A stretch of DNA of 18,246 nucleotides from a virus, in UHGV virus genome UHGV-0188933, one strand, 5' to 3'. Within the stretch, counting starts at the first letter, position 1. Each line of letters begins with the position of its first letter. Of the stretch, positions 1 to 17,684 are shown piece by piece. A program made the position numbers and the translations under genes. Below the pieces are notes generated by a model. The model saw only the letters and a list, made by a program, of their open reading frames with translations, did no database searches and was not told the origin of the DNA.

Positions 1-166
1 TGCATTTATCAAGTGTTTCCTTCATTGATATCCCGAGAGCATCAACATGCAATGTTGTAGGGATGGCAATTTTTACGCCCGTTTTGCTTTGCTCGACATA
101 AAGATATCCATCTACGATATCAGACCACTTCATTTCGCATAAATCACCGACTCGTTGCCCGGTACA
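1..166 (-). pseudogene. int: lambda-type tyrosine integrase, internal fragment (N-terminal part missing; C-terminal part continues left of the window)
   Basis: Complement translation of 2-166 reads TGQRVGDLCEMKWSDIVDGYLYVEQSKTGVKIAIPTTLHVDALGISMKETLDKC, which I recognise as the central region of lambda Int-family integrases. The frame runs off the left edge. Int-like sequence stops near 166, where the + strand O-like frame begins. Confidence 0.7.
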
Positions 167-847
167 GGGAGCTATCGGACAACTGGACGCCCGTCGCTGG
201 TCAGAGAAACATTCATCCCCGACAACAAAGTTCGGAGCTTATTACGGACTTTTGAGTCGAAAGGGATGCTTAATATTTGCGCGATGGGGAAGAAATTTAG
301 CCTGTTTACAATCGTTAAATATGACGATTTTCAGTCAAAAAATTGTCCAACGGTTGTCCAACGGTTGTCCAACGCAAACACCAGTAATGGTGCGGCTCTC
401 AGCGGAGATTGTCCAACGGTTGTCCAACAGTTGTCCATAAACAATAATATAAATAATATCTCTAATACTGACGTATTAGAGAGTGCCACAGCAGACAAAA
501 AGTCTGACAAGAAAAAACCTTCCGTCAGCTGTCAGGATGTTGTCGATGCTTACCACGAAATCCTTCCTGAAGCGCCAAGAATCCGCGCACTGAATGACAA
601 GCGTAAAAACCAGATCCGAACGTTCTGGCGCAAAGCCGGAGTAATAACACGCCAACTTGACGGGCATGGGTTCACGATGCAGGACTGGAGAAATTATTTG
701 AGCTACGTTGGCGAAAATTGCCGATGGATGTTCGAAGAGCGCCCAAACCATCAACGCGGAACCGTCTGGCACAAAAAGGGATTTGATTTCCTGCTTAACG
801 ATAATACCTACCTGAAAGTTCGTGAGGGTGAACACGATGACCGATAA
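155..847 (+). CDS. O-like replication initiation protein, probably 5'-truncated (start uncertain; candidate starts TTG 155, ATG 266)
   Basis: Open frame follows a TAA at 140-142. Six 11-bp iterons and an AT-rich tract lie inside the coding region, as in lambda O/ori. It sits immediately upstream of a DnaB-type helicase (P22 gene 18/gene 12 style arrangement). No room for an N-terminal iteron-binding domain upstream of the iterons. Confidence 0.55.
   Translation: MPGTGSYRTTGRPSLVRETFIPDNKVRSLLRTFESKGMLNICAMGKKFSLFTIVKYDDFQSKNCPTVVQRLSNANTSNGAALSGDCPTVVQQLSINNNINNISNTDVLESATADKKSDKKKPSVSCQDVVDAYHEILPEAPRIRALNDKRKNQIRTFWRKAGVITRQLDGHGFTMQDWRNYLSYVGENCRWMFEERPNHQRGTVWHKKGFDFLLNDNTYLKVREGEHDDR
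343..441. repeat. origin iterons: 6 copies of TTGTCCAACGG-like 11-mer in two triplets (343-375 and 409-441)
   Basis: Direct tandem repeats ttgtccaacgg, ttgtccaacgg, ttgtccaacgc, then after a 33-bp spacer ttgtccaacgg, ttgtccaacag, ttgtccataaa. Confidence 0.8.
442..481. promoter_or_regulatory. AT-rich tract plus 9-bp inverted repeat (ctctaatac/gtattagag, 460-481) next to the iterons; putative unwinding element of the origin
   Basis: Sequence acaataatataaataatatctctaatactgacgtattagag lies immediately 3' of the iterons, matching the iteron + AT-rich + palindrome layout of lambdoid origins. Confidence 0.55.
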
Positions 848-1856
848 TTTTTATGCGCCGCCCCATAGCATCGAGGCAGAGCAGGCGGTGATTGGTGGAT
901 TGCTTCTGGATGATGACAGCAGTGAGCGCGTCCAGAAAGTTCTGGCGATGCTGAAGCCTGATTCATTTTACAGCCGACCACACAAAATCCTTTTCGAAGA
1001 AATAACCAGAATGCACCGGGAGCAAAAGCCAGTAGATGGCCTGACGCTTTTCGATGAACTGGAGCGTAAATCGTTAACGGCGTCTGTTGGCGGTTTTGCT
1101 TATATCGCTGAGATCGCAAAGAACACGCCAAGCGCAGCAAACATCGTTGCCTATGCAATGCAGGTTCGTGAAACCGCAATGGAACGCTACGCCATCAACC
1201 GCATGACTGAAGCGACGGAATTGCTCTATTCCCGCAACGGAATGACTGCAACGCAGAAGTACGAAGCTATTCAGGCGATTTTCACGCAACTGACAGACCA
1301 TGCAAAAACCGGATCGCGTCGCGGCCTTCGCTCATTTGGTGAGGTCATGGAAGACTGGGTTAGCGACCTTGAGAAGCGATTTGACCCGTCAGGCGAACAA
1401 CGAGGAATGAGCACAGGGATCCCATCTCTGGACAGGATGCTGTCACCGAAAGGTCTGGTGAAAGGCTCTCTGTTCGTCATTGGCGCTCGCCCTAAGATGG
1501 GGAAAACGACGCTATACAGCCAGATGGCAATCAACTGCGCAGTGCATGAGAAAAAGCCCGCTCTGATGTTCAGTCTTGAAATGCCAGGCGACCAGATACT
1601 GGAAAAGCTGGTAGGACAGAAGTCAGGTGTTAACCCGAATATTTTTTACATTCCGGCGACAAATGACGCTGATGACGGCTATCAGGGTGATTACGATGGT
1701 GACTTCAACAGGGCGATCGAAACAGCCAATCGCTTGAGTGAAATCGACCTGCTTTACATCGACGACACGCCGGGATTATCTCTGGCTCAAATCGTCAGCG
1801 AAAGTCGTCGAATCAAGCGAGAAAAAGGATGTGTTGGCATGATTCTGGTCGATTAG
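837..1856 (+). pseudogene. DnaB-family replicative helicase, ended by in-frame TAG at 1854-1856; lacks the C-terminal part of the RecA-like domain
   Basis: N-terminal PPHSIEAEQAVIGGLLLD and SVGGFAYIAEIAKNTPSAANI are DnaB N-domain signatures; Walker A is GARPKMGKTT; the ORF stops at ...GMILVD*, right where DnaB has ...IDYLQLM. ATG at 837 is preceded by GAGGG. Same-frame codons continue 1857-2039 but do not look like DnaB. Confidence 0.75.
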
Positions 1857-2040
1857 AGAACGTGCGAGGAAAACAAGGTGATTGACCAAAATCGAAGTTA
1901 CGAACAAGGAAGTGTCGAGCGAGCTTTAACGTGCGCTAACTACGGTCAGAAGCTGCATGTGCTGGAAGTTCACGTGTGTGAGCACTGCTGCGCAGAACTG
2001 ATGAGCGATCCGAATAGCTCGATGCACGAGGAAGAAGACG

Positions 2041-2763
2041 ATGAATGAGTTAATAAATGGCAATGCCATCAAAATGACAAGCATTGAAATCGCTGAGTTG
2101 GTTGGTAAGCGTCATGACAATGTGAAACGTACCATCGAAACGCTGGCTAAAAATGGTGTTATCCGGCTTCCTCAAATTGAGGTTTCCGAAAGAATCAATA
2201 ACTTAGGGTTCAATGTTCAGTACGAGCATTACGTCTTCGAAGGCGAACAAGGTAAGCGAGACAGTATTGTCGTTGTTGCCCAGTTGTCGCCGGAATTCAC
2301 CGCTCGCCTTGTTGACCGCTGGCGAGAGCTTGAAGAAGCTGCGGTTAATATCCCCAAAACGCTACCAGAAGCGTTGCGCCTTGCTGCTGATCTTGCTGAG
2401 CAGAAAATGCAACTGGAAAACCAGCTCGCAATTGCCGCACCTAAAGTTGAGTTTGCCGATCGCGTTGGCGAGGCCAGCGGAATTTTGATTGGAAACTTTG
2501 CAAAGGTTGTCGGTATTGGTCCAAACAAACTGTTTGCGTGGATGCGCGATCACAAAATCCTTATTGCTTCAGGTTCCCGGCGCAATGTGCCAATGCAGGA
2601 ATATATGGATCGCGGCTATTTCACAGTGAAAGAAACAGCGGTCAATACAAATCACGGAATACAGATATCGTTCACCACAAAAATCACCGGGCGCGGTCAA
2701 CAGTGGCTGACCAGAAAGTTGCTCGATAACGGAATGCTGAAAGTAACAGGAGAGGCTGCTTAA
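2041..2763 (+). CDS. phage antirepressor (Rha-type N-terminal domain plus KilAC-type C-terminal domain)
   Basis: 240-aa ORF; N-terminus resembles Rha-family regulatory proteins and the C-terminal half resembles antirepressor KilAC domains. Start overlaps the upstream stop (ATGA). Confidence 0.6.
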   Translation: MNELINGNAIKMTSIEIAELVGKRHDNVKRTIETLAKNGVIRLPQIEVSERINNLGFNVQYEHYVFEGEQGKRDSIVVVAQLSPEFTARLVDRWRELEEAAVNIPKTLPEALRLAADLAEQKMQLENQLAIAAPKVEFADRVGEASGILIGNFAKVVGIGPNKLFAWMRDHKILIASGSRRNVPMQEYMDRGYFTVKETAVNTNHGIQISFTTKITGRGQQWLTRKLLDNGMLKVTGEAA

Positions 2764-3412: not shown

Positions 3413-3603
3413 ACGCCACAATTCAAACGATACCAGAGCTTCTTATCCAGACACGAGGCAATCAGACCGAAGTGGCAAGGATGCTTTCCTGCGCAAGAGG
3501 AACAGTGCTTAAGTACAACCGAGACAGCAAAGGCGAGCGTCACGTAATAGTTAACGGCGTCCTGATGGTCAAACAGGGCAAGAGGGGAAGACGATGGGCA
3601 TAA
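3409..3603 (+). CDS. ninH: NinH-like protein
   Basis: 64 aa; TIPELLIQTRGNQTEVARMLSCARGTVLKYNRDSKGERHVIVNGVLMV resembles lambda NinH (TIPDMLVEAYGNQTEVARRLKCSRGTVRKY). Position between rusA and Q is as in lambdoid nin regions. Confidence 0.75.
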   Translation: MNATIQTIPELLIQTRGNQTEVARMLSCARGTVLKYNRDSKGERHVIVNGVLMVKQGKRGRRWA

Positions 3604-4082
3604 GAGAACTAAACCTCACCAAAGAGCAGCACGAGTGGCTGAATGGCTGGCTTGAACTGTGGGGGGCATGGGTTTATTCAGGTCGTCTTGAAAAGCGCAT
3701 GAGCAGCGTAATAGCGAAGTTCATGGAGAGCGTAGAGCCGGGAAGAGTTATGACAAGGCCAATGTGCAATGATGATGATGGAATGTTGATTTCTCAGGTC
3801 GTCGATTCCGTCATGTACATTGACAAGAAAGCCTTTGGCATCCTCCTCAGCTACTACGCCCATGGATCTTCCAAGCACGCCATTGCATCTTACTATCATC
3901 GCGTCGCAAGACCTCGCAAGATGTTATGCCGGGGCGGAGGGCGCATTCAAAAACCATCGCTCGCAACCTGTCGTCGGGAAGTTGACGAAATCCTCAATGC
4001 CTCGTTGTTTATGATTTACCCGGTTCTGGATAGTGCGTTTAAAAACCGGAAACGTGTAGAGAAAATTAAACATGTAGCATAG
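3594..4082 (+). CDS. late-gene antiterminator, Q-like
   Basis: 162-aa Cys-containing protein in the Q position (after ninH, before the lysis cassette). Call rests on synteny and size more than on recognised motifs. Confidence 0.55.
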   Translation: MGIRELNLTKEQHEWLNGWLELWGAWVYSGRLEKRMSSVIAKFMESVEPGRVMTRPMCNDDDGMLISQVVDSVMYIDKKAFGILLSYYAHGSSKHAIASYYHRVARPRKMLCRGGGRIQKPSLATCRREVDEILNASLFMIYPVLDSAFKNRKRVEKIKHVA

Positions 4083-4172: not shown

Positions 4173-4247
4173 GGGTCAGTCGTATAAAGGTCATTACGGA
4201 AGGCTGTTAACCTTCTTATCGTGGTTCGAGTCCACGCTATCCCGCCA
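4173..4247 (+). tRNA. tRNA-Asn-like element (anticodon GUU), possibly degenerate
   Basis: Perfect T-arm cgtgg-TTCGAGT-ccacg, perfect anticodon arm gaagg-CTGTTAA-ccttc (U33, anticodon GTT, A37), U8, A14, GG in D-loop, 3' CCA at 4245-4247. Acceptor stem has two mismatches (gggtcag vs ctatccc) and D-stem one. Confidence 0.45.
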
Positions 4248-8089: not shown

Positions 8090-8245
8090 ATGGCAAAGCT
8101 CACCGACAAACAAGAGCTGTTTGCCCGTGAGTACCTGAAAGATTTAAACGCCACACAGGCAGCTATCAGGGCGGGTTGGGCAAAAGCTCAACAACATGCC
8201 GTATTACCGCGCGAAACAATACGCGCAGATGCTTGGCATCGATGA
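8090..8245 (+). pseudogene. terminase small subunit, N-terminal stub (51 codons)
   Basis: MAKLTDKQELFAREYLKDLNATQAAIRAGW... is the conserved N-terminal helix-turn-helix of Terminase_2-type small subunits; frame ends at 8243-8245 after diverging. SD ggag 8 nt upstream. Confidence 0.7.
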
Positions 8246-9833
8246 AAACACGCTGATGGCGATGCGGCGCGGCATGAATGGCTTTACCGCCGATTACCAG
8301 TCGATGCTGCAAAAGACAGGGTTCAACGCTGATAAAGCGGCTGTTCAGTCCAACAAATTCATGACGTCCATGCGCGGGCTTACGTCGCTGTTCGGCATCA
8401 TGCGGGACAAGATCGGCTCAAACCTCGCTGGTGGCCTGGCTGGTTCGCTGGACAGCCTGCGGCGGCGCATCCTCGACAATTTCCCGAAGATTGAAGAGAC
8501 GCTGACCAGAGTTATTAAAGGCGTGATCTGGCTTGCGAACGCATTCACGAGAATGGCGTGGCGGCTGATACAGGGCGCTGGCTCTGTCATCGACTGGTGG
8601 AAGCGTCTTGACGATGGCAGTAAAAATCTGCTGAAAATATTCGGTGCTCTACTGGTCGCATGGCGTCTGCTTAATTCTGCGTTCCTGAAATCCCCGATTG
8701 GAATTATCACCACACTGATTCTGGCGATCGGATTGCTGTACGACGATTACCAGACGTGGAAAGAGGGCGGTAAAAGCCTGATTGACTGGTCCAAATGGCA
8801 GCCAGAAATTGAGCAGGCAAAGAAGGTGTTCAAGTGGCTGCGCGATAAGTTTCTGGAGCTCAAGGACAACCTCGGCGGCTGGAAAAATACGCTCACCATC
8901 CTGTTTGGCTTTCTGGCTGGTGCGAAGCTGGTCTCCATGCTCACTGGCATCGGGCGACTTGTCGCCGGATTTATGGGGCTTGGTAAGGCAATTGGCGGCT
9001 CTATTGGTGGGCTGGGTAAGCTGGCGCAGGGGATCGCACAGCTGGCAATCAAGAATCCATGGTTGCTTATGTTCATTCCTGCCAACAATACGCCGACCAC
9101 CAGTGAAGAAATGGCGTCGATTGGCGGTATAGGCAGCAATATCGTACCTGAAAGGCAGCAGGCATATGAGGCGCTGAGAAAGGAAAATCCCGGCAAAGAC
9201 TTTTTCACTGATGAGCAAATCCAGCGAAAAATTCAGGAGATGGGACTGGAGCCGGAGCAGCGAGCGCAGTCGGTTAAGCGACCTCAGGCGACGGCCCAGG
9301 GCAAGGTATTGCTCGACTGGATGGGGCCAATGTTCAATAAACTGGAGTCGCTTTATCAGCTGCCAGCTGGCCTGTTGAAAAGCGTGGCGATCACCGAGTC
9401 GGGTGGTAACCAGTTCGCCATATCCGGCGCAGGCGCGAAAGGACTGTTTCAGTTTATGGATGGCACGGCGCGCGACATGGGCCTGCGTGGGAATGATGTA
9501 TTCGACCCGGAAAAGTCAGCTCAGGCAGCCGCTAAGTACCTCAGCCAGCTGTTGCGGCAGAACGGCGGAGACCTTAGCAAAGCACTGGCATCATATAACT
9601 GGGGGATCGGGAATGTTAAGCGTTATGGAATGGGGCTAATGCCGCAGGAAACGCGCAACTACATTCCGAAAGTGATGAGCAATATGCCCACCAGCGCCCC
9701 GGTGATTCAGCAGGAAACGAACATTAACATCCACGGCGTTTCCGATCCGCGCGAGGCTGCCCGTTTGACTGTTGACCGTCAAAAGGGCGTGAATTCACAG
9801 TTAACCCAGCAACTCCCCGCAGGACCGAGATAA
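8196..9833 (+). CDS. tail tape measure protein, C-terminal portion, with lytic transglycosylase (SLT) domain; N-terminal part absent
   Basis: Typical TMP low-complexity Gly/Ala/Leu segments (LAGGLAGSLDSL, GKAIGGSIGGLGKLAQGIAQ). C-terminal ITESGGNQFAISGAGAKGLFQFMDGTARDMGL...ASYNWG is an SLT signature. Frame opens only at 8148, just inside the terS stub. Confidence 0.75.
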   Translation: MPYYRAKQYAQMLGIDENTLMAMRRGMNGFTADYQSMLQKTGFNADKAAVQSNKFMTSMRGLTSLFGIMRDKIGSNLAGGLAGSLDSLRRRILDNFPKIEETLTRVIKGVIWLANAFTRMAWRLIQGAGSVIDWWKRLDDGSKNLLKIFGALLVAWRLLNSAFLKSPIGIITTLILAIGLLYDDYQTWKEGGKSLIDWSKWQPEIEQAKKVFKWLRDKFLELKDNLGGWKNTLTILFGFLAGAKLVSMLTGIGRLVAGFMGLGKAIGGSIGGLGKLAQGIAQLAIKNPWLLMFIPANNTPTTSEEMASIGGIGSNIVPERQQAYEALRKENPGKDFFTDEQIQRKIQEMGLEPEQRAQSVKRPQATAQGKVLLDWMGPMFNKLESLYQLPAGLLKSVAITESGGNQFAISGAGAKGLFQFMDGTARDMGLRGNDVFDPEKSAQAAAKYLSQLLRQNGGDLSKALASYNWGIGNVKRYGMGLMPQETRNYIPKVMSNMPTSAPVIQQETNINIHGVSDPREAARLTVDRQKGVNSQLTQQLPAGPR

Positions 9834-10435
9834 TGGATATTTTATCAGCGATTTTTCGCCAGCAATCCCGGCGAATTGGCCTGCTGATCCCCAGCGTGGT
9901 CGTTTCCGAAAAGCATTCTGATGCGCTCGAAATTACTGAGCACCCGGTGGAGAAGCCAACAACGAATAGCGCGTCGGGTTTCATCGCCGATCATGCGTAT
10001 AAGCGCCCCAGCGAAGTCACGATGGAATGCGGCTTCGCAGGTGGCGGTTCGTTGCTGGACTTCATTGATACATCGTCAATCGGCCTCAGCGCCGGACTTA
10101 GCCCGAAAGAGACCTATCAGCAACTACTGGATCTCCAGTCCTCTCGGGTGCCGTTCGATGTAGTGACCGGAAAGCGGGTTTACAGCAATATGCTGGTGCG
10201 AGCCATCGAGGTGACAACGGATAAAACCAGCGAGAACGTGCTGAACTGCACGCTTACCCTGCGTGAAGTGATCATGTCGCAGACGCAGAGCGTTAGCGTT
10301 GCAGATAAATCAGATATGCAGGATGGCGTCAGCACATCGGCGGTGCAGAATTCCGGGATGAAATCCACTACACCGCCAAACGAATCCTTGCTGAGCCAGC
10401 TGGGCGGAAGCGTTACATCAGCATTCGGGGGATGA
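9833..10435 (+). CDS. tail/baseplate assembly protein (family uncertain)
   Basis: 200-aa ORF translationally coupled to the TMP stop; position between TMP and hub. Confidence 0.4.
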   Translation: MDILSAIFRQQSRRIGLLIPSVVVSEKHSDALEITEHPVEKPTTNSASGFIADHAYKRPSEVTMECGFAGGGSLLDFIDTSSIGLSAGLSPKETYQQLLDLQSSRVPFDVVTGKRVYSNMLVRAIEVTTDKTSENVLNCTLTLREVIMSQTQSVSVADKSDMQDGVSTSAVQNSGMKSTTPPNESLLSQLGGSVTSAFGG

Positions 10436-10436
10436 T

Positions 10437-10742
10437 ATGCAGTTTAACGAAATACCGCTTTCTCCTGACAATCAGCAGTTCCGCGTTTTGCTGGGCAATA
10501 CCACGTATACACTCAGGATCATCTGACGTGATGCGGCTGGCTGGATTATGGACGTGATGGATAGCGGCGGTGCCGCGCTTCTCTCTGGCGTACCTCTACT
10601 GACCGGCGTAAACCTTTTACGACAATATCCACAGCTTGGCATTGATGGCGCGCTGGTGGTGGCGACCGATAAGGGCGCACCAGACGAGCCCACCAAAACC
10701 AACCTCGGCACATACAGCCACCTCATTTTCGTACAGGAGTAG
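10437..10742 (+). pseudogene. small tail protein interrupted by in-frame TGA at 10524-10526
   Basis: Single frame reads MQFNEIPLSPDNQQFRVLLGNTTYTLRII*RDAAGWIMDVMDSGGAALLSGVPLLTGVNLL...VQE, verified codon by codon; the TGA would be Trp with one G-to-A change. Confidence 0.5.
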
Positions 10743-10744
10743 AA

Positions 10745-11812
10745 ATGTCTCTTAACTGGATGCGCCATTTTGAGCTGCAACTGTTGGACCAGAACGGGCA
10801 GGGCGTTTCCCTGTCTGACTTTAAGGTCACGTTCCAGATCGAGTGGGCAGACACACGCTGGCCACGCGTGGCGAACGTGAAAATTTACAACCTTTCGACC
10901 GATACCACGAACAAGATACTGGGGCAGGAGTTTGCAAAAATTCGCATCATTGCCGGGTATGACGGTATTGCGCCGGATGTTGATGCGAGCCAGGTTGGTG
11001 TCGCCCGGGAGATTTCACCAGACCAGGTAGGGCAGGTGAACGGTCAGAACTACGGCCTGATATTTGACGGTGATATTCGCTTCACCGTCACCGGGAAGGA
11101 CAACATCACCGATTCCTGGGTGCTGATTCAGGCCATCAGTAACCACGAAGCGTTCCTCTACGCGACTACCATCACCACGCTTGCCGCTGGTTATACCGTT
11201 GCGGACCTGCACCGGGCGACTATGCAGGATTTCAACGCGTTCGGCGTGACGCAGGGCATTACCGGTGACTTTCCTGATACCGTGTTTCCTCGTGGCCGTG
11301 CGATTTATTCATCCACCCGTAACGTGATGGATAATATTGCTGCGCAGTGCAAAGCGACATGGCAGCTGGTGGATGGTCAGGTCCAGATGGTGCCGGAGGA
11401 TAAATATATTCACGAAGCCATTGTGTTGAATGCCGATACTGGCCTGATCGGTATGCCGCAACAAACGATGGGCGGCGGAGTAAACGTGCGGTGCCTGATA
11501 AACCCAAACATCCGTATTAATGGTCTTATCCAGCTCGATCAGGCTTCGGTGTACCGCGCCGCGCTCGGTAATAGCGAAATAGCACAGTCGCCCGGTCGCA
11601 TCACCGAAACAGAAGAGAACGGCAACCGCGTACTGACCGGCACAACGTCACAGGCTGCCAGCATTGCGACAGATGGCGTTTATATCGTCAAAGCTATCGA
11701 TTATACTGGTGACACCAGAGGTCAGGCGTGGTACATGGATTTGATGTGTTTTGCGCGTGGGGCTCGTGACCTGATTAGCCAGTCGACTATAGCTCGCTCA
11801 GGAGGAAATTAA
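10745..11812 (+). CDS. baseplate hub-like tail protein (Mu gp44 / P2 gpD position)
   Basis: 355-aa ORF immediately upstream of the spike/gp46/gpJ/gp48 module; assignment by synteny and size. Confidence 0.4.
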   Translation: MSLNWMRHFELQLLDQNGQGVSLSDFKVTFQIEWADTRWPRVANVKIYNLSTDTTNKILGQEFAKIRIIAGYDGIAPDVDASQVGVAREISPDQVGQVNGQNYGLIFDGDIRFTVTGKDNITDSWVLIQAISNHEAFLYATTITTLAAGYTVADLHRATMQDFNAFGVTQGITGDFPDTVFPRGRAIYSSTRNVMDNIAAQCKATWQLVDGQVQMVPEDKYIHEAIVLNADTGLIGMPQQTMGGGVNVRCLINPNIRINGLIQLDQASVYRAALGNSEIAQSPGRITETEENGNRVLTGTTSQAASIATDGVYIVKAIDYTGDTRGQAWYMDLMCFARGARDLISQSTIARSGGN

Positions 11813-12703
11813 GTGGGTACAAATAAGAACGGAATTCGATATAGCGCACTTTTTCTTTCCGGGTTGCTCTTATCCGGGGGCGCGAGTGCAGGCTTTAATT
11901 CCGCGCAGAACGCTGAGTACAAAAGACGTCCAGGATGGCAGCCGATAGTAATTTTATCGACAGATGATTGTCAGACATGGAAATCTAAAGGGAAGTCACT
12001 AATTGACTGGAGTGGCGAGATCTGTGGTCCTGACGGGTTGATTAAGGCAATCAATAAAAAGCCGGAGAATATACCAGCTTTTTATGCTGCATATCATGAG
12101 TACGGCACAGGTGGAGTTAGGGCTATCGATGTAAGAGATAATTCTCAGCTAAATTATCTCAATTTTGTAAATGATTTAGCTAAGAAACTTTCTTCTTCGG
12201 CTGTTGTATTAAAGATTTATGATGATTATATCATTGATAGAAAACCCATGGGGCTTGCAGAGGTTTCACGAGAAAATTTTGTAAAACAGCTAAATGAGTT
12301 ATCGCTGAAGCAACCTGCCATCTATCAAAAAATGAACGACGTAGCCAAGGCTGATTACGAGAAAAGTAGTAATGTTCACAGTAACGAAAAGCTTGGCGTG
12401 AATTACAAAACAGTCTGTGGTCCTTATACGATTGATCTGTCTTCTGCTGATGGTTGGGCCAGAATTAATGGCGCAAAACCAGAGACGCAAAAAATTAGCC
12501 CAATCGGCTCTGGTGGTAGCACCAAAGGGGAACCGGATAACATCAAGATGGAGTGGATGGCTGCCACTAATCAACCCGGCCGCTGGGTTGGGCTTGAGTA
12601 CATCAAGCGCAACGGAAAAGCTATTCTCAACGCACAGTGGTTGCAGGCCAGCATAGACGCGCCGCGCCAGTATGCAACATACGACTGCCGAAAAGTAAAA
12701 TAG
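11813..12703 (+). CDS. cargo (moron) protein, 296 aa: signal-peptide-like N-terminus and a TMP-like motif; function unknown
   Basis: GTG start 7 nt after GGAGG. N-terminus MGTNKNGIRYSALFLSGLLLSGGASAG looks like a signal peptide. Residues DDCQTWKSKGKSLIDWS parallel DDYQTWKEGGKSLIDWS in the TMP. Remainder is visibly AT-rich relative to flanking tail genes. Confidence 0.55.
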   Translation: MGTNKNGIRYSALFLSGLLLSGGASAGFNSAQNAEYKRRPGWQPIVILSTDDCQTWKSKGKSLIDWSGEICGPDGLIKAINKKPENIPAFYAAYHEYGTGGVRAIDVRDNSQLNYLNFVNDLAKKLSSSAVVLKIYDDYIIDRKPMGLAEVSRENFVKQLNELSLKQPAIYQKMNDVAKADYEKSSNVHSNEKLGVNYKTVCGPYTIDLSSADGWARINGAKPETQKISPIGSGGSTKGEPDNIKMEWMAATNQPGRWVGLEYIKRNGKAILNAQWLQASIDAPRQYATYDCRKVK

Positions 12704-12721
12704 CCCGCCAGATAGGCGGGC
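12703..12721 (-). terminator. GC-rich hairpin between the convergent cargo genes (terminator for the minus-strand gene)
   Basis: gcccgcc-agata-ggcgggc, 7-bp stem; on the minus strand it is followed by a T-rich tract (ctattttacttttc). Confidence 0.55.
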
Positions 12722-12726
12722 ATGCG

Positions 12727-13017
12727 TCAAAAATATTGAGCTTTAATTATAATAAACACAATAATTACGAACAGGATGTTTCTAATTATTTTTTGCTTAT
12801 GAGTAAGTTGTTTTTTTTCTGTCGATTTCCCGGGAGAGTAAAGGTTAGTGGTATGCGACAGCCCCGTGCCGGGAAGGCCATTTGTCATCTTTACGCCTTT
12901 TTTCCCGATGTTAATGGTGGAACCTTTACCACCAATTGAAGTGCTTACTCCGCTTTTACTAATGTTGATCGCGAGTCCGGGCGCAATCCGGATTCTTTTA
13001 CGAAATCTAAATCCCAT
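12727..13017 (-). CDS. DUF4236-like small protein with C-terminal transmembrane helix
   Basis: MGFRFRKRIRIAPGLAINISKSGVSTSIGGKGSTINIGKKG...PGTGLS resembles what I recall of the DUF4236 N-terminal signature; C-terminus IIRNILFVIIVFIIIKAQYF is hydrophobic. AT-rich, convergent with the cargo gene. Confidence 0.55.
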   Translation of the reverse strand: MGFRFRKRIRIAPGLAINISKSGVSTSIGGKGSTINIGKKGVKMTNGLPGTGLSHTTNLYSPGKSTEKKQLTHKQKIIRNILFVIIVFIIIKAQYF

Positions 13018-13204
13018 TTGTTACTCCTGTAGTCAATAATGCGATGGTGCAGGTCCACTCTATGGCGGCTTCATGGCTGAAATTGATTTTCAATGCTTAC
13101 TTGTTGCAAACATATCCTAATACACATTGTGAATGTGTGCCATTGCAGCGGAAAAGCCTTACTTCACACTGATGTAGCTTAGTTACTAAGAGATAATTGA
13201 TACC

Positions 13205-13228
13205 AAACCAGCTTCGGCTGGTTTTTTT
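13205..13228 (+). terminator. strong intrinsic terminator 12 bp upstream of the spike gene start
   Basis: aaaccagc-ttcg-gctggttt, perfect 8-bp stem with tetraloop, then TTTT (7 T in a row counting the stem end). Confidence 0.7.
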
Positions 13229-13239
13229 ATGGGGGTTTT

Positions 13240-13980
13240 ATGCCAATTCCAACTCAATCACAGATCGGCGGTGAGCAGCAGACCGCGCAGGCCATTGCCG
13301 ATTCGGTGTCTACCCAGATGCGCGTAGCGATGCCCGGCATCATTCAGTCGTTCGATCCTGACACTGTTACCTGCACGGTAGAGGTAGCGCTTCGCGGTAT
13401 CGTTGGCGATGGCTCCACCGAATTAAAACCGCTGGTGGATGTGCCGGTTATCTTCCCGCGTGGCGGCGGTTGTACGCTGACTTTTCCGGTTAAAGAAGGC
13501 GACGAGTGCCTGCTGCTCTTTGCCGACCGTTGCATCGATTTCTGGTGGCAGAGCGGCGGCGTGCAGGAGACCGTCGACCCGCGCCAGCATGACTTATCTG
13601 ATGCGTTCGCCATCGTTGGCCCACAGTCGCAAGCACGGAAAATCAGCGGTATCAGTACCAGCGCCGCGCAGCTGCGAACCGATGATGGTGCGGCGTTTGT
13701 AGAAGTCGCCGCAGGACATAACATCACCATTAAAACACCGGGCCAGCTTACAGCTACGGCTGAAGGTGGAACGACAATCACATCCCCGACTATCACGCTG
13801 AACGGCAACGTAACGATTAATGGCAACTTGTCTCAGGGAATGGGCGAAAGCGGCGGTACTGCGACGATGCTTGGGCCGGTGACGGTAACGAATGACGTAA
13901 CAGCTTCTGGTATCAGTGTCGCCACGCATAAACATGGCGGAGTACAGACTGGCGGGGGAACTACCGGAGGGCCGCAATAA
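13240..13980 (+). CDS. baseplate spike / assembly protein V (Mu gp45, P2 gpV-like)
   Basis: N-terminal OB-fold-like region (GIIQSFDPDTVTCTVEV...PLVDVPVIFPRGGG...GDECLLLFADR) and Gly/Thr-rich beta-helical C-terminus (TITSPTITLNGNVTINGNL...). Confidence 0.8.
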   Translation: MPIPTQSQIGGEQQTAQAIADSVSTQMRVAMPGIIQSFDPDTVTCTVEVALRGIVGDGSTELKPLVDVPVIFPRGGGCTLTFPVKEGDECLLLFADRCIDFWWQSGGVQETVDPRQHDLSDAFAIVGPQSQARKISGISTSAAQLRTDDGAAFVEVAAGHNITIKTPGQLTATAEGGTTITSPTITLNGNVTINGNLSQGMGESGGTATMLGPVTVTNDVTASGISVATHKHGGVQTGGGTTGGPQ

Positions 13981-14333
13981 TGCGATACCGTCGCGAAGAT
14001 ACTGAAGGCGATTACACTTTCGGCCAGGGTGACGATACTTTCCTTATCGACAGTCCGGAATGTGTCGCCCAGGCCGTAAAAACCCGTTTCGAGCTGTGGC
14101 GCGGTCAGTGGTTTCTCGATCTGACGGAAGGCACGCCGTATGTTCAGTCAGTGCTTGGGAAGCAGCGATCAGATGTCTACATCCTGGCTATACGCGAACG
14201 CATACAGGATACACCGGGCGTTCTGTCGATTCTTTCCTTCGATACCAATTATGACGGCACCAGCCGTCGCGTCACCTTCACTTCCTCCATTGACACAATC
14301 TACGGCCAGACGACTGTAACAAGCGAGGCATAA
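13980..14333 (+). CDS. baseplate protein, Mu gp46 / gpW-like
   Basis: 117 aa, ATGA-coupled between spike and gpJ-like gene. Confidence 0.65.
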   Translation: MRYRREDTEGDYTFGQGDDTFLIDSPECVAQAVKTRFELWRGQWFLDLTEGTPYVQSVLGKQRSDVYILAIRERIQDTPGVLSILSFDTNYDGTSRRVTFTSSIDTIYGQTTVTSEA

Positions 14334-15533
14334 ATGGCTTTGAACCTCGACACGCTGGGGCTATCGGCAACGGTAACCGCCCAGGGGATTAGTGCGCCTG
14401 ATTACCAGACAATCCTAGATACACTGACCAGCTATTTCAGGCAGATTTACGGTAGTGATGCCTACCTCGAACCAGACAGCAAAGACGGGCAGATGGTCGC
14501 GCTGGTGGCTCTTGCCGTGCATGACGCTAACAACACCGCTATCGGGATCTACAACTCTTTTTCACCGACGACAGCGCAGGCCGCAGCGCTTAGCAGCAAT
14601 GTGAAAATTAACGGGATCACGCGAAAAGTAGCGACAAACTCTACTGCTGACCTTCTGTTAACCGGTACGGCAGGCACGACTATCACGAATGGCTCCGCAC
14701 GGGATAAAAACGGCATTATCTGGAATTTTCCCGCAAGTGTAGCGATCGGCGTTGATGGTACTGTGCTGGTGACGGCCACATGTGCGAATAGCGGTTCGGT
14801 TGCGGCGCTGGCCGGGACTATTACCACTATCAACACCCCGACCCGAGGTTGGGTGTCGGTAACCAATCCAGTTGCGGCTACTGTCGGTTCACCAGCCGAA
14901 ACCGACGCAGAGCTGCGCATTCGGCAGGGGCAAAGCGTCGCGCTACCATCGATCACACCGTTTGAAGGTGTCGACGGTGCTATCGCTAATGTTGCTGGCG
15001 TGACACGTCACAAACTATATAAGAACGATACTGGGGCAACCGACAGCAACGGGCTGCCGCCACACTCTATTTCCGCCATCGTCGATGGAGGGGATGTTAC
15101 CGAGATAGCCCAGACCATCAGGGGGAATAAAGGGCAGGGAACCGCAACTTACGGTAAAACTTCTGTCACAGTGCCGGATACTTATGGTAATCCTCACGTC
15201 ATCAGTTTTTCGCGCTCTACCGATGTGCCAATTTTCGTAGCCATTACCCTGAAAGTTTTTACCGGCTATACCTCTCAAATCGGCGAGCAGATTAAACAGG
15301 CTGTTGCCGATTATATAAATGGCCTAACAATTGGCGACGACGTTCTGCTGAGCCGTATTTATTCCCCGGCAAACCTCGGCGTTGTGAGCGGCGGGAATGC
15401 CCGCTATTACGATATTACCGACCTGCTGATCGGTAAGTCGTCTGGCAGCGTATCGGCATCAAACATTGATATTGCCTATGATGCTTCAGCGTCCTGTAGC
15501 ACCGCGAATATCAGTATCACGGTGACCTCATGA
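14334..15533 (+). CDS. baseplate J-like protein (Mu gp47 / P2 gpJ family)
   Basis: 399 aa; size and position between gp46-like and gp48-like genes. Confidence 0.7.
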   Translation: MALNLDTLGLSATVTAQGISAPDYQTILDTLTSYFRQIYGSDAYLEPDSKDGQMVALVALAVHDANNTAIGIYNSFSPTTAQAAALSSNVKINGITRKVATNSTADLLLTGTAGTTITNGSARDKNGIIWNFPASVAIGVDGTVLVTATCANSGSVAALAGTITTINTPTRGWVSVTNPVAATVGSPAETDAELRIRQGQSVALPSITPFEGVDGAIANVAGVTRHKLYKNDTGATDSNGLPPHSISAIVDGGDVTEIAQTIRGNKGQGTATYGKTSVTVPDTYGNPHVISFSRSTDVPIFVAITLKVFTGYTSQIGEQIKQAVADYINGLTIGDDVLLSRIYSPANLGVVSGGNARYYDITDLLIGKSSGSVSASNIDIAYDASASCSTANISITVTS

Positions 15534-16210
15534 GCAAATACACCGAACTGATCACTAACTACCACGCTACCAAGCCACTCTTTTTTGACCATATAGATCT
15601 GAGCACCTGCCCGCTGATTGATGTGTCCAGCACTATGTCAGGGCTTATAACAGCCTTCGATATCGATACTGCTGTCGGTGTACAGCTCGACATCCTCGGT
15701 CTGTGGATCGGACGCAGTCGCATAGTCAGCCAGCCAATTAGCGGAGTTTATTTCAGCTTGGACACTGACGGGCTTGGGTATGACCAGGGCATCTGGCAAG
15801 GGCCATATGATCCTGATTCTGGCTATACGACGCTAAGCGATGAGACGTACCGCATCATTCTGAAAGCGAAAATCGCTATCAACAACTGGGACGGTCGGAA
15901 CGACTCTCTGCCTCCCATCCTTGACGCTGCTACCGCAGGCTCAGGCCTGAGGATGCAGATCGTCGACAACCAGGACATGACGATTTCGGTCTGGGTTTTC
16001 CCTGAAACTGATATTTCTGATGTGTCTCTCGAACTGATCGCCGCTATCAAACAGGGCTATCTCACCGTTAAATCAGCTGGCGTATGGGCCGGTGATGTTG
16101 AAACGCCTTCGGTAGAAACACCGTCAGAAGGCTCTAAATTCTTTGGGTTTGATATGGATAACGAATACATCGGCGGGTTCGATGTTGGAGCATGGGGGAC
16201 AATACTCTAA
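15530..16210 (+). CDS. tail protein, Mu gp48 / YmfQ (DUF2313) family
   Basis: 226 aa, coupled upstream of the tail fibre gene, as in Mu-like and e14-like baseplate modules. Confidence 0.65.
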   Translation: MSKYTELITNYHATKPLFFDHIDLSTCPLIDVSSTMSGLITAFDIDTAVGVQLDILGLWIGRSRIVSQPISGVYFSLDTDGLGYDQGIWQGPYDPDSGYTTLSDETYRIILKAKIAINNWDGRNDSLPPILDAATAGSGLRMQIVDNQDMTISVWVFPETDISDVSLELIAAIKQGYLTVKSAGVWAGDVETPSVETPSEGSKFFGFDMDNEYIGGFDVGAWGTIL

Positions 16211-17076
16211 TGGCAATAAACAACTTTAAACCTTTCGCGCTTGATCCGAACGCTAACGTCACCTCACAAGCTGACTGGGAAGCACTTCCGGCTCTGCTTT
16301 CAGGGTTTACGGCAGGTAAAGCATCCAGCGCACAGGTCAACAAAGCTATTCGGCAAGCCAGCTTTATCGCGGCAGCGTTGGCGCAGTACACCGCCAACAA
16401 AAGCGGGCTGGATGTGCTTGATGATGGAGACCTGAACGGGTTTATATCCAAAATGGGGACCGCTTTCGGGAAAGATTTCCAGGCGCTTGATGCCACGCTG
16501 TCGGCATTAGCTGGGCTCGCAACAGGTGCAAATAAACTCCCATATTTCACTGGAAATGATACAGCAGCGCAGACTGATTTAACTTCTGTTGGCCGTGACA
16601 TTATTGGGAAAAATACTATTGCTGATATTCTCACATACCTTGGTTTGGGAGAAGGCTCAGCATTACCTGTTGGGGTGCCTGTTCCGTGGCCTTCAGCCAC
16701 TCCGCCAACAGGCTGGTTGAAATGCAATGGTGCGGCTTTTTCTGCTGAAGAATATCCGGAACTAGCAAAGGCTTATCCGACAAATAAATTGCCTGATTTA
16801 CGTGGTGAGTTTATTCGTGGCTGGGATGACGGGCGCGGTGTGGATAATGGCCGCGGTTTACTGTCTACTCAGAACGATGAGTTTAAATCCCACAGCCATA
16901 ACTTTGATCGCACATGGGGGTTAAGCGCCTTTGATCCTACTGGGGGCTATGACCTTGTTTCAGCAGATGCAAGCGGGAAAGTAGTAAATTTCGATACTCG
17001 ACCAACCGTCGAAGTGGGCGGCTCAGAAACCCGTCCGCGCAACATTGCATTCAACTACATTGTAAGGGCGGTATAA
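16210..17076 (+). CDS. short tail fibre protein with C-terminal phage tail collar domain
   Basis: C-terminal PVPWPSATPPTGWLKCNGAAFSAEEYPELAKAY...LPDLRGEFIRGWDDGRGVDNGRGLLSTQNDEFKSHSH is a tail-collar pattern. ATG 16210 overlaps the upstream TAA (track ORF begins at in-frame ATG 16192). Confidence 0.8.
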   Translation: MAINNFKPFALDPNANVTSQADWEALPALLSGFTAGKASSAQVNKAIRQASFIAAALAQYTANKSGLDVLDDGDLNGFISKMGTAFGKDFQALDATLSALAGLATGANKLPYFTGNDTAAQTDLTSVGRDIIGKNTIADILTYLGLGEGSALPVGVPVPWPSATPPTGWLKCNGAAFSAEEYPELAKAYPTNKLPDLRGEFIRGWDDGRGVDNGRGLLSTQNDEFKSHSHNFDRTWGLSAFDPTGGYDLVSADASGKVVNFDTRPTVEVGGSETRPRNIAFNYIVRAV

Positions 17077-17684
17077 TGACCACAAAAGAAATCAACCTGG
17101 ATGAAAACGGGTTCGCCACGGAATCTGGGGTTATCACTGTTTATAATTACGATGGCGTGACGCGTGAATATATCGGTTTATCTGTTGAATATCTTCCCGT
17201 TGGCGTTGGTGTTCCAGGCAATTCGTGCGTGGATGCGCCAATCAGCAAAAAGGACGGCTTTGCTGTTTGCCGGACGGCTGATTTGACCGGTTGGGAATAT
17301 GTTGCAGACCATCGCGGCGAAACCGTTTACAGCACGGAAACTGGAGAACCTGTGGCAGTTTCACAGTTGGGAGAATACCCGGAAGGAACCACCACCAAAG
17401 CACCTGATACGCCATACGACAAATGGGATGGCCAAAAATGGGTGACGGATGCCGATGCACAGCATAGTGCCGCACTAGACGCGGCAGAAGTAAAGCGCCA
17501 GTCACTGATTGATGCAGCAATGGCTTCCATTAGTCTGATTCAGCTGAAATTACGGGCCGGACGGAATCTGACGCAGGCAGAAACCGCCCGACTTAACGCT
17601 GCGCTGGATTACATTGACGCGGTGACGGCAACAGATACCAGCACCGCGCCGGATGTCATCTGGCCTGAACTGCCGGAGGCGTAG
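17076..17684 (+). CDS. tail fibre assembly chaperone (Tfa)
   Basis: 202 aa ending ...TATDTSTAPDVIWPELPEA, a typical Tfa C-terminus, directly downstream of the fibre gene. Confidence 0.8.
   Translation: MTTKEINLDENGFATESGVITVYNYDGVTREYIGLSVEYLPVGVGVPGNSCVDAPISKKDGFAVCRTADLTGWEYVADHRGETVYSTETGEPVAVSQLGEYPEGTTTKAPDTPYDKWDGQKWVTDADAQHSAALDAAEVKRQSLIDAAMASISLIQLKLRAGRNLTQAETARLNAALDYIDAVTATDTSTAPDVIWPELPEA

Follow-up and report, generated by a model that had tools for sequence, protein, structure and literature searches.

A putative Sf6/HK75/phage L-type lambdoid replication origin within a decayed prophage

A stretch of 18,246 nt of viral DNA (UHGV virus genome UHGV-0188933; hereafter the window) carries, close to its left end, short direct repeats inside an open reading frame. 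An earlier note, made from the letters of the DNA alone, had read these repeats as an iteron origin laid out like ori-lambda, embedded in an O-like gene, lacking its cognate binding domain in cis and perhaps open to being driven in trans by a related phage. This locus raises the question of whether the repeats are a replication origin, to which phage family such an origin would belong and whether it could still work where it now lies.

Repeats, A+T tract and palindrome in a truncated initiator gene

Sequence reading and repeat finders place the starts of 11-bp units at 343, 354, 365, 409, 420 and 431, which confirms six 11-mers in two tandem triplets separated by 33 bp (Table 1). TTGTCCAACGG is found exactly in three units, and TTGTCCAACGC and TTGTCCAACAG each depart from it by one mismatch. 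The sixth unit, TTGTCCATAAA, is degenerate, with 8/11 positions matching, and extends into the A+T tract; the core TTGTCCA is nevertheless present in 6/6 units. Because the spacer is exactly 33 bp, all six units lie in one 11-bp register (offsets 0, 11, 22, 66, 77 and 88). Five matches with at most one mismatch were observed against 0.33 expected, a number that none of 200 shuffles reached, and Tandem Repeats Finder, applied to the whole 18-kb window, reported these two arrays of 11-bp period and no others. A 9-nt dyad, CAACGGTTG, at the unit junctions of the iteron class found here (class A, below) is absent from other iteron classes and was rejected as a real feature.

The A+T-rich tract reported to follow the iterons is indeed there: it contains a single C in 22 nt (95% A+T), and GC content is 0.20–0.25 in 40-nt windows. 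An inverted repeat is also present, but its arms are 10 bp (459–468, TCTCTAATAC; 473–482, GTATTAGAGA) and not 9 bp as first described, so that it ends at 482, one base beyond the 481 given earlier. The arms flank a 4-nt loop, and the palindrome, folded as single-stranded DNA, has a free energy of -9 kcal/mol (z = -5.4). No DnaA boxes were found near the origin, the sole TTWTNCACA match in the window lying at 16839. Promoter-like matches inside the iterons are at chance level in a consensus scan (3 found vs 2.2 expected), and an Rfam scan of window positions 1–2100 gave nothing meaningful.

Table 1. Features at the left end of the window
Feature	Position	Strand	Basis
Tyrosine integrase gene fragment, left prophage remnant adjoining ybhC	1..164	-	98–100% identity
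Deletion junction, 13 nt matching neither integrase nor initiator gene	165..177		homology ends
Initiator gene 3' part, Sf6 gp43/HK75 O/phage L gp18-type, codons ~75–296 and stop	178..847	+	homology
Iteron triplet 1: TTGTCCAACGG, TTGTCCAACGG, TTGTCCAACGC	343..375	+	repeat finders, core conservation
Spacer, 33 bp, three iteron-unit lengths	376..408	+	sequence reading
Iteron triplet 2: TTGTCCAACGG, TTGTCCAACAG, TTGTCCATAAA	409..441	+	repeat finders
A+T-rich tract ATAAACAATAATATAAATAATA, presumed DNA-unwinding element	437..458	+	GC, conservation
Perfect palindrome TCTCTAATAC-TGAC-GTATTAGAGA	459..482		repeat finder, covariation
Truncated DnaB-type replicative helicase gene, 339 codons from ATG vs 478 intact	837..1856	+	Pfam

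The array lies within an open reading frame (155–847), and the initiator gene of which this frame retains the 3' part (178–847) is O-like/gp18-like, so that the placement of the array in an O-like gene holds. With E = 2e-85, the full-length protein falls into PHROG 345 ('replication initiation O-like'). Homology to the 891-nt full-length gene starts only 221 nt into it, and codons 1–74 are missing. The remnant has no natural start: an ATG at 266 has an SD-like AAGGG directly abutting it, and a TTG at 155 has none. The next gene, a matter on which the earlier note was silent, is truncated as well. It matches Pfam DnaB (1.9e-31) and DnaB_C (2.1e-25), the latter over profile positions 1–136 of 255 only; homology stops at 1855, and ninF follows directly.

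Upstream, the integrase fragment matches annotated tyrosine recombinases at 98–100% identity in 1925 E. coli genomes; this match stops at 164, and initiator homology begins at 178–181. A 100% identical contig (L113) puts the fragment beside a pectinesterase (ybhC-like) gene, and in 100% identical metagenome and read-assembly contigs aconitase, symporter, PrpF-family and LysR-family genes precede the pectinesterase gene. We take this flank, from the E. coli map, to be the ybhC side of the lambda attachment site. From the integrase fragment and the flanking contigs it therefore follows that the window starts at the left end of a defective lambdoid prophage.

What has been lost can be read from an intact prophage in strain 1506, where a repressor, cro, cII and a small ORF are followed by an 891-nt gene for a 'DNA replication protein' and a 1437-nt gene for a DnaB-like helicase. 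One deletion, with its left end inside int, reaches about codon 75 of the initiator gene; lost with it are the early promoters, the early-left genes, the immunity region, cro, cII and the start of the initiator gene. A second, which ends at ninF, begins inside the helicase gene and cost that gene its 3' third. The rightward promoter region, too, is deleted in the window, where a promoter scan gave nothing above chance. The left junction is absent from complete E. coli genomes and from GTDB representative genomes, the latter searched for an exact 40-nt match. Phages or prophages of this iteron class occur in ~145 of 5426 complete E. coli genomes, with up to four copies per genome. In the complete genomes, the 5' part of the initiator gene is found at 152 places and the iteron part at 157, so almost all copies are full length and truncated ones are rare; even so, at least three independent 5' truncations of the initiator gene retain the origin.

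Likeness to annotated phage origins and other systems

Window positions 178–1855 are 98–99% identical to the replication genes of many E. coli prophages, and matches to these genes are also found in phages Sf6, HK75, HK106, HK542, mEpX2, mEp234 and IME10. The initiator remnant is 98% identical to Sf6 gene 43 and to O of HK75, HK106 and mEpX2; for the Salmonella phages L, ST64T and SE1, identity to the window is 87.7%. The Sf6 record (AF547987) annotates a rep_origin at 28385–28480 that corresponds to window 342–437, precisely the six units, with three mismatches, all of them non-core. Its note reads 'repeat region reminiscent of the phage lambda origin; similar to phage HK620'. A rep_origin stands at the equivalent array in the HK620 record, and the phage L record has a 'putative origin of replication'. 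In a 2021 paper, six imprecise repeats of TGTCCAACGGA in phage L gene 18 are described as the likely origin, and earlier genetics are cited that place the origin within the replication region of this phage (PMC8022706). Our literature search turned up no experiment, in any phage, on whether iterons of this type bind the initiator or support replication, and no paper for the exact 11-mer. Judged by sequence, the window element is the already described putative origin of Sf6/HK75/L-type lambdoid phages, here in an ordinary decayed prophage.

The closest counterparts are gene 43 of Sf6, the O genes of HK75, HK106 and mEpX2 and gene 18 of L and ST64T. The six TGTCCAAC units, the spacer, the A+T tract and the palindrome are shared by all of them and sit where they do in the window gene, and a DnaB-type helicase gene comes next, as in the window. 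The window differs from them in lacking the first ~74 codons of the initiator and the promoter region, in lacking the 3' third of the helicase gene, and in a few point differences at non-core positions of the units. The earlier note had asked for the 11-mer to be traced in other prophages of the genome, with a check for full-length O proteins; full-length cognate initiators occur in Sf6, HK75, L, ENT47670 and others, and always with this 11-mer. In the O gene of HK022, HK620 and VT2-Sakai, the C-terminal half is 97–100% identical, the 3+3 arrangement in 66-bp register and the A+T tract are the same and the palindrome is identical, but the iteron is nnTTACCAGCA and is paired with another N-domain (46% identity), which implies a different specificity.

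The resemblance to ori-lambda was checked on the lambda sequence and, together with the coincidence with the Sf6 rep_origin, bears out the layout proposed earlier, with shorter and different iterons. In lambda too, iterons, an A+T-rich tract and an inverted repeat all lie inside gene O: four annotated iterons span 39034–39118, and an inverted repeat with 12-nt arms (92% complementary) and a 4-nt loop follows the A+T stretch. In both systems the origin occupies a linker in the middle of the initiator gene, and N-domain and iterons are exchanged together between phages; the N-terminal 162 residues of lambda O bind the origin (PMC2629481). The differences are nonetheless substantial. Lambda has four 18-bp iterons with internal dyad symmetry, 20–24 bp apart, whereas the window has six asymmetric, abutting 11-bp direct repeats, and the lambda partner is the P helicase loader, whereas the partner gene in the window encodes a DnaB-type helicase itself. 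The initiator type found here has no Pfam or NCBIfam match to lambda O and is reported to be ~15% identical to it (PMC8022706). The window element thus resembles ori-lambda by analogy of layout and is not a sequence-level member of the lambda family; at 98% identity it belongs with the Sf6/HK75/L-type origins.

P22 has the same gene order, 18 then 12 (initiator, DnaB-type helicase), with origin repeats inside gene 18, but there the repeats are reported to be four of ~20 bp, and P22 gp18 to be only 25% identical to L gp18 (PMC8022706). Iteron origins of theta plasmids offer a looser parallel: they combine directly repeated initiator sites with an adjoining A+T-rich unwinding element, and their initiators have winged-helix-type DNA-binding domains, as weak structural matches suggest for the initiator type found here, but the window origin has no nearby DnaA box and sits inside the coding sequence of its own initiator. 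Plasmid iterons are typically 17–22 bp long.

Initiator domains and iteron classes among the relatives

With the full-length initiator, Pfam gave nothing significant (the sole match, DUF7376, scored 17 bits against a cut-off of 27), NCBIfam gave no match, and a profile search against PDB sequences gave only chance-level matches to ribosomal protein S19. An AlphaFold2 model of a full-length homologue was built from a 25-sequence alignment and has a mean pLDDT of 62. The model has an N-domain (residues 23–124, pLDDT 75–91) with helices at 24–32, 35–38 and 40–52, three strands, helices at 78–85 and 89–101 and a two-strand wing. Residues 125–188 are modeled as a disordered linker, encoded by the origin, and residues 189–283 as the C-domain; the origin (343–482) corresponds to residues ~128–176 of the 296-residue protein, between the two domains. 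Foldseek searches of the PDB with the N-domain returned weak winged-helix matches only (among them TubR, the MarR family, CodY and CRP; E 0.013–0.07), which is consistent with, but does not prove, a winged helix in the modeled domain. According to the model, the deletion in the window removes the first helices and strands (residues 1–74), while helices 78–85 and 89–101 and the wing are still encoded. The statement that the window has no cognate binding domain in cis is thus right in effect, since codons 1–74 are lost, although the domain is half deleted and not absent.

We compared 27 distinct relatives, drawn from phage records and bacterial genomes of Escherichia, Edwardsiella, Enterobacter, Klebsiella, Raoultella, Yersinia, Brenneria, Erwinia, Ewingella, Leminorella and others. 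The diverse relatives came from a scan of genome contigs; a scan of viral contigs yielded mostly copies 98–99% identical and added little diversity beyond variants with three and nine units. The layout of the window recurs in 25 of the 27: a triplet of abutting 11-mers, the 33-bp spacer and a second triplet in 66-bp register, then an A+T tract and a palindrome. It is irregular in the other two (L103 and L104). The iterons fall into at least five classes, all with the 3+3, 66-bp-register layout: TGTCCAAC (class A; the window, Sf6, L and ENT47670), TTACCAGC (HK022 and HK620), GTGCCAAC (Klebsiella, Raoultella, Yersinia, Brenneria and Erwinia), AATCCAA (Ewingella) and TGTCCAGC (an Enterobacter prophage).

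In these sequences, iteron class tracks the N-domain of the initiator and not its C-domain. Within class A, N-domains are at least 73% identical, against 42–59% outside it, while the C-domains of class A span 57–100% identity. The HK022 initiator makes the point most directly, with a C-domain 100% identical to that of the window type, an N-domain only 46% identical and different iterons. The mosaic boundary with HK022/HK620-type genes falls at window 437, where the A+T tract starts, and only 437–847 are held in common. The motif in the predicted recognition helix also varies by class: DNKV[RK]S occurs with TGTCCAAC, DRVQY with TTACCAGC, [DN]R[VI]KY with GTGCCAAC and DRVKS with TGTCCAGC.

The elements that follow the array are equally constant. 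Among class A relatives the A+T tract is 95–100% identical (20–21 of 21 positions), and nearly all relatives have an A+T tract of 15–21 nt at the equivalent position. All 27 carry a perfect palindrome with arms of 9–11 bp at a fixed position. When 13 distinct versions of the palindrome were aligned on the center of symmetry, 97.7% of cells were paired, a figure biased towards pairing since the center was the best inverted repeat searched for in each sequence, and both sides had changed at 9 of 10 pairs. None of 500 shuffles reached any of these covariation measures, and sliding the partner by 1–3 columns lowered pairing to 30–55% of cells. The palindrome stands at one fixed position in all 27 relatives and is no artefact of the search. 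Its pairs are almost purely Watson-Crick, with one G-U in 130 cells, a pattern more in keeping with symmetry of the duplex, or with a hairpin needed on both strands, than with a hairpin in RNA. There is a slim chance that the covarying palindrome is an essential, structure-dependent element of the origin, for example a helicase-loading hairpin or cruciform, common to lambda.

Proposed function and alternative readings

We consider it probable, from the analogy with lambda and from the comparisons above, that 343–482 is an intact copy, within a decayed prophage, of the cis-acting origin that serves the replication module of Sf6/HK75/phage L-type lambdoid phages. The winged-helix-like N-domain of the gp18/O-like initiator would, in a complete phage, bind the 11-bp iterons. 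With units one helical turn apart and triplets 66 bp apart, the bound proteins would lie on one face of the DNA and could assemble a complex like the lambda 'O-some'. This complex would destabilize or open the adjacent A+T tract, and the C-domain of the initiator would recruit the DnaB-type helicase of the phage itself, encoded by the next gene. The symmetric palindrome would act at the DNA level, through its structure or its symmetry.

Most of the alternatives concern what the repeats themselves are for. They could be a duplicated peptide-coding segment (CPTVVQRLSN, twice) in a flexible linker with no function as DNA: the 33-nt triplets keep the frame, each of them coding for the 11-residue motif, and natural variants with 3, 6 and 9 units, in 66-bp steps, likewise stay in frame and give proteins of 274, 296 and 318 residues. 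The unit, however, is 11 bp, a length not divisible by 3, so that each unit of a triplet falls in a different reading frame and the 11-bp period cannot be coding. The TGTCCA core is kept at 36 of 36 positions in every TGTCCAAC-class genome, including several synonymous sites that selection on the protein would not hold fixed, whereas the flanking coding DNA in this class is only 64–76% identical; the spacer, at 73–79%, is at background level (64–84% for spacer and flanks overall). Moreover, the peptides vary by class (CPTVVQRLS, VPADYQQIT, VPTECQQSA) while the period and phase of the DNA are fixed, and the segment is predicted to be disordered. The comparison of the 27 relatives thus supports an origin acting at the DNA level, and we regard a purely peptide-coding role as extremely improbable. 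It is also unlikely, though somewhat less so, that the 11-mers are protein-binding sites for control (autoregulation, handcuffing or incompatibility) with the true origin elsewhere. Such a role would agree with the outcome of our literature search, which found no origin mapping for the Sf6/L-type family, and with the finding that lambda iterons on a plasmid can inhibit replication of an incoming phage, possibly by titrating O (PMC3349717). Yet the full lambda-like set of iterons, nearly invariant A+T tract and palindrome is conserved, the genetics of phage L put the origin in the replication gene region (PMC8022706), and the surviving phage part of the window has no other tandem arrays.

The palindrome invites a reading of its own, as an intrinsic terminator of leftward (antisense) transcription formed with a T-rich run on the minus strand. 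A consensus scan does score the minus strand as terminator-like, with the 10-bp stem followed by TATTATTTAT, and the phage L record has a minus-strand terminator at the equivalent position. We judge this improbable: only 3 of the 10 stem pairs are G-C and the stem is A+T-rich in all variants, terminator-like matches in the region are at chance level (4 found vs 2.8 expected), the covariation is of the nearly exclusive Watson-Crick kind described above, and the lambda origin has an analogous inverted repeat at the same position. A further alternative accepts the origin and asks why it persists. An orphan origin might be kept because it benefits the host, soaking up initiator or firing in the chromosome so that 'replicative killing' amounts to abortive infection. 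In its favor, the cis elements show no decay and match those of intact phages exactly, at least three independent 5' truncations of the gene spare the origin, and lambda provides precedents for both effects, inhibition that depends on iterons and replicative killing by an origin trapped in the chromosome (PMC3349717). On the other side, the flanking pseudogene DNA is just as well preserved (98%), so that the deletion may be a recent one, one copy in the chromosome would soak up little initiator, and truncated copies are rare (152 vs 157 places), which leaves selection for host benefit very improbable. A related proposal, that the orphan origin is kept as a cis element triggered by, or titrating, a superinfecting TGTCCAAC-specific initiator, has in our estimate a slim chance of being right; if true, it would mean lineage-specific abortive infection or interference with replication.

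For the cis-acting origin that we favor, the state of the window has a direct consequence. Its cis elements are all intact and undecayed, but with both replication genes cut short and the control region lost it cannot fire alone. Firing would plausibly depend on a phage with a TGTCCAAC-specific initiator that supplied both this initiator and its helicase in trans. By the precedent of lambda (PMC3017604), transcription through or near the origin may also be needed in cis. The prophage in the window would thus be without replication of its own, and its origin would matter only if a related phage infects or co-resides. For the family as a whole, the iteron classes and their matched N-domains make up a compact natural data set on how the specificity of initiator for iteron changes, and the comparison gives experiment a clear target in an origin that has long been assumed.

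Iteron sequence and the predicted recognition helix

Among the 24 relatives compared, the predicted recognition helix of the initiator carries a motif that follows the class of the iteron. DNKV[RK]S accompanies iterons of class TGTCCAAC, DRVQY those of class TTACCAGC, [DN]R[VI]KY those of class GTGCCAAC and DRVKS those of class TGTCCAGC. This pairing suggests which residues are responsible for reading the three variable bases that precede the common CCA on its 5' side.

The spacer between the two iteron triplets contains CACCAGTAATGGTG (381-394), a 5-bp inverted repeat. Phage Sf6 and the intact prophage of E. coli 1506 carry GGCG at the spacer position where the window has GGTG; the repeat is thus probably a chance product of one substitution.

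Truncations of the initiator and helicase genes

The initiator gene has undergone at least three distinct 5' truncations, represented by the window (165-180), the related contigs L110 and L111 (~85-100), and L112 and L114 (~7870 in L112). Each has a separate junction, with 44-57 nt between junctions, and all three forms retain the C-domain as well as iterons, A+T tract and palindrome.

The helicase gene breaks directly 3' of GGTCGATTA (1850-1860 in the window, 9585-9595 in L112). In L112 and L114 the break falls at the identical base and is followed by unrelated DNA, in a chromosomal context that differs from that of the window and adjoins an exonuclease I gene; an immediate stop codon is produced in both contexts. 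The common break point could reflect either shared ancestry or a recombination hotspot.

Late region

In the gene calls for L113, a contig identical to the window, a terminase fragment of just 51 residues precedes the tail and baseplate module, and the head genes therefore seem to have been deleted from the prophage. The module, 94% identical to Citrobacter phage Omnitron, encodes a 545-aa SLT-domain protein, a Dit-like protein, a gpV-like spike, Baseplate_J and DUF2612 proteins, a tail-collar fibre and a fibre assembly protein. The tRNA-Asn gene lies within a ~1.4 kb stretch without long ORFs.

Coordinates of features in the window
Feature	Window	Remark
Predicted recognition helix	~212-260	full-length initiator residues ~86-101
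Q-like antiterminator gene	3594-4082	
tRNA-Asn (GTT) gene	4173-4247	shortly downstream of Q-like gene
Tail and baseplate module	8196-17684	

Natural variation in iteron number

Natural arrays contain 3, 6 or 9 iterons, each size differing from the next by 66 bp (22 codons), as judged from variants on viral contigs L071 and L073 and in initiator proteins P0001-P0022 (318 aa), P0042 and P0047 (274 aa). The 3-unit array is present on dozens of contigs, Shigella flexneri among them; three units may therefore suffice for function.
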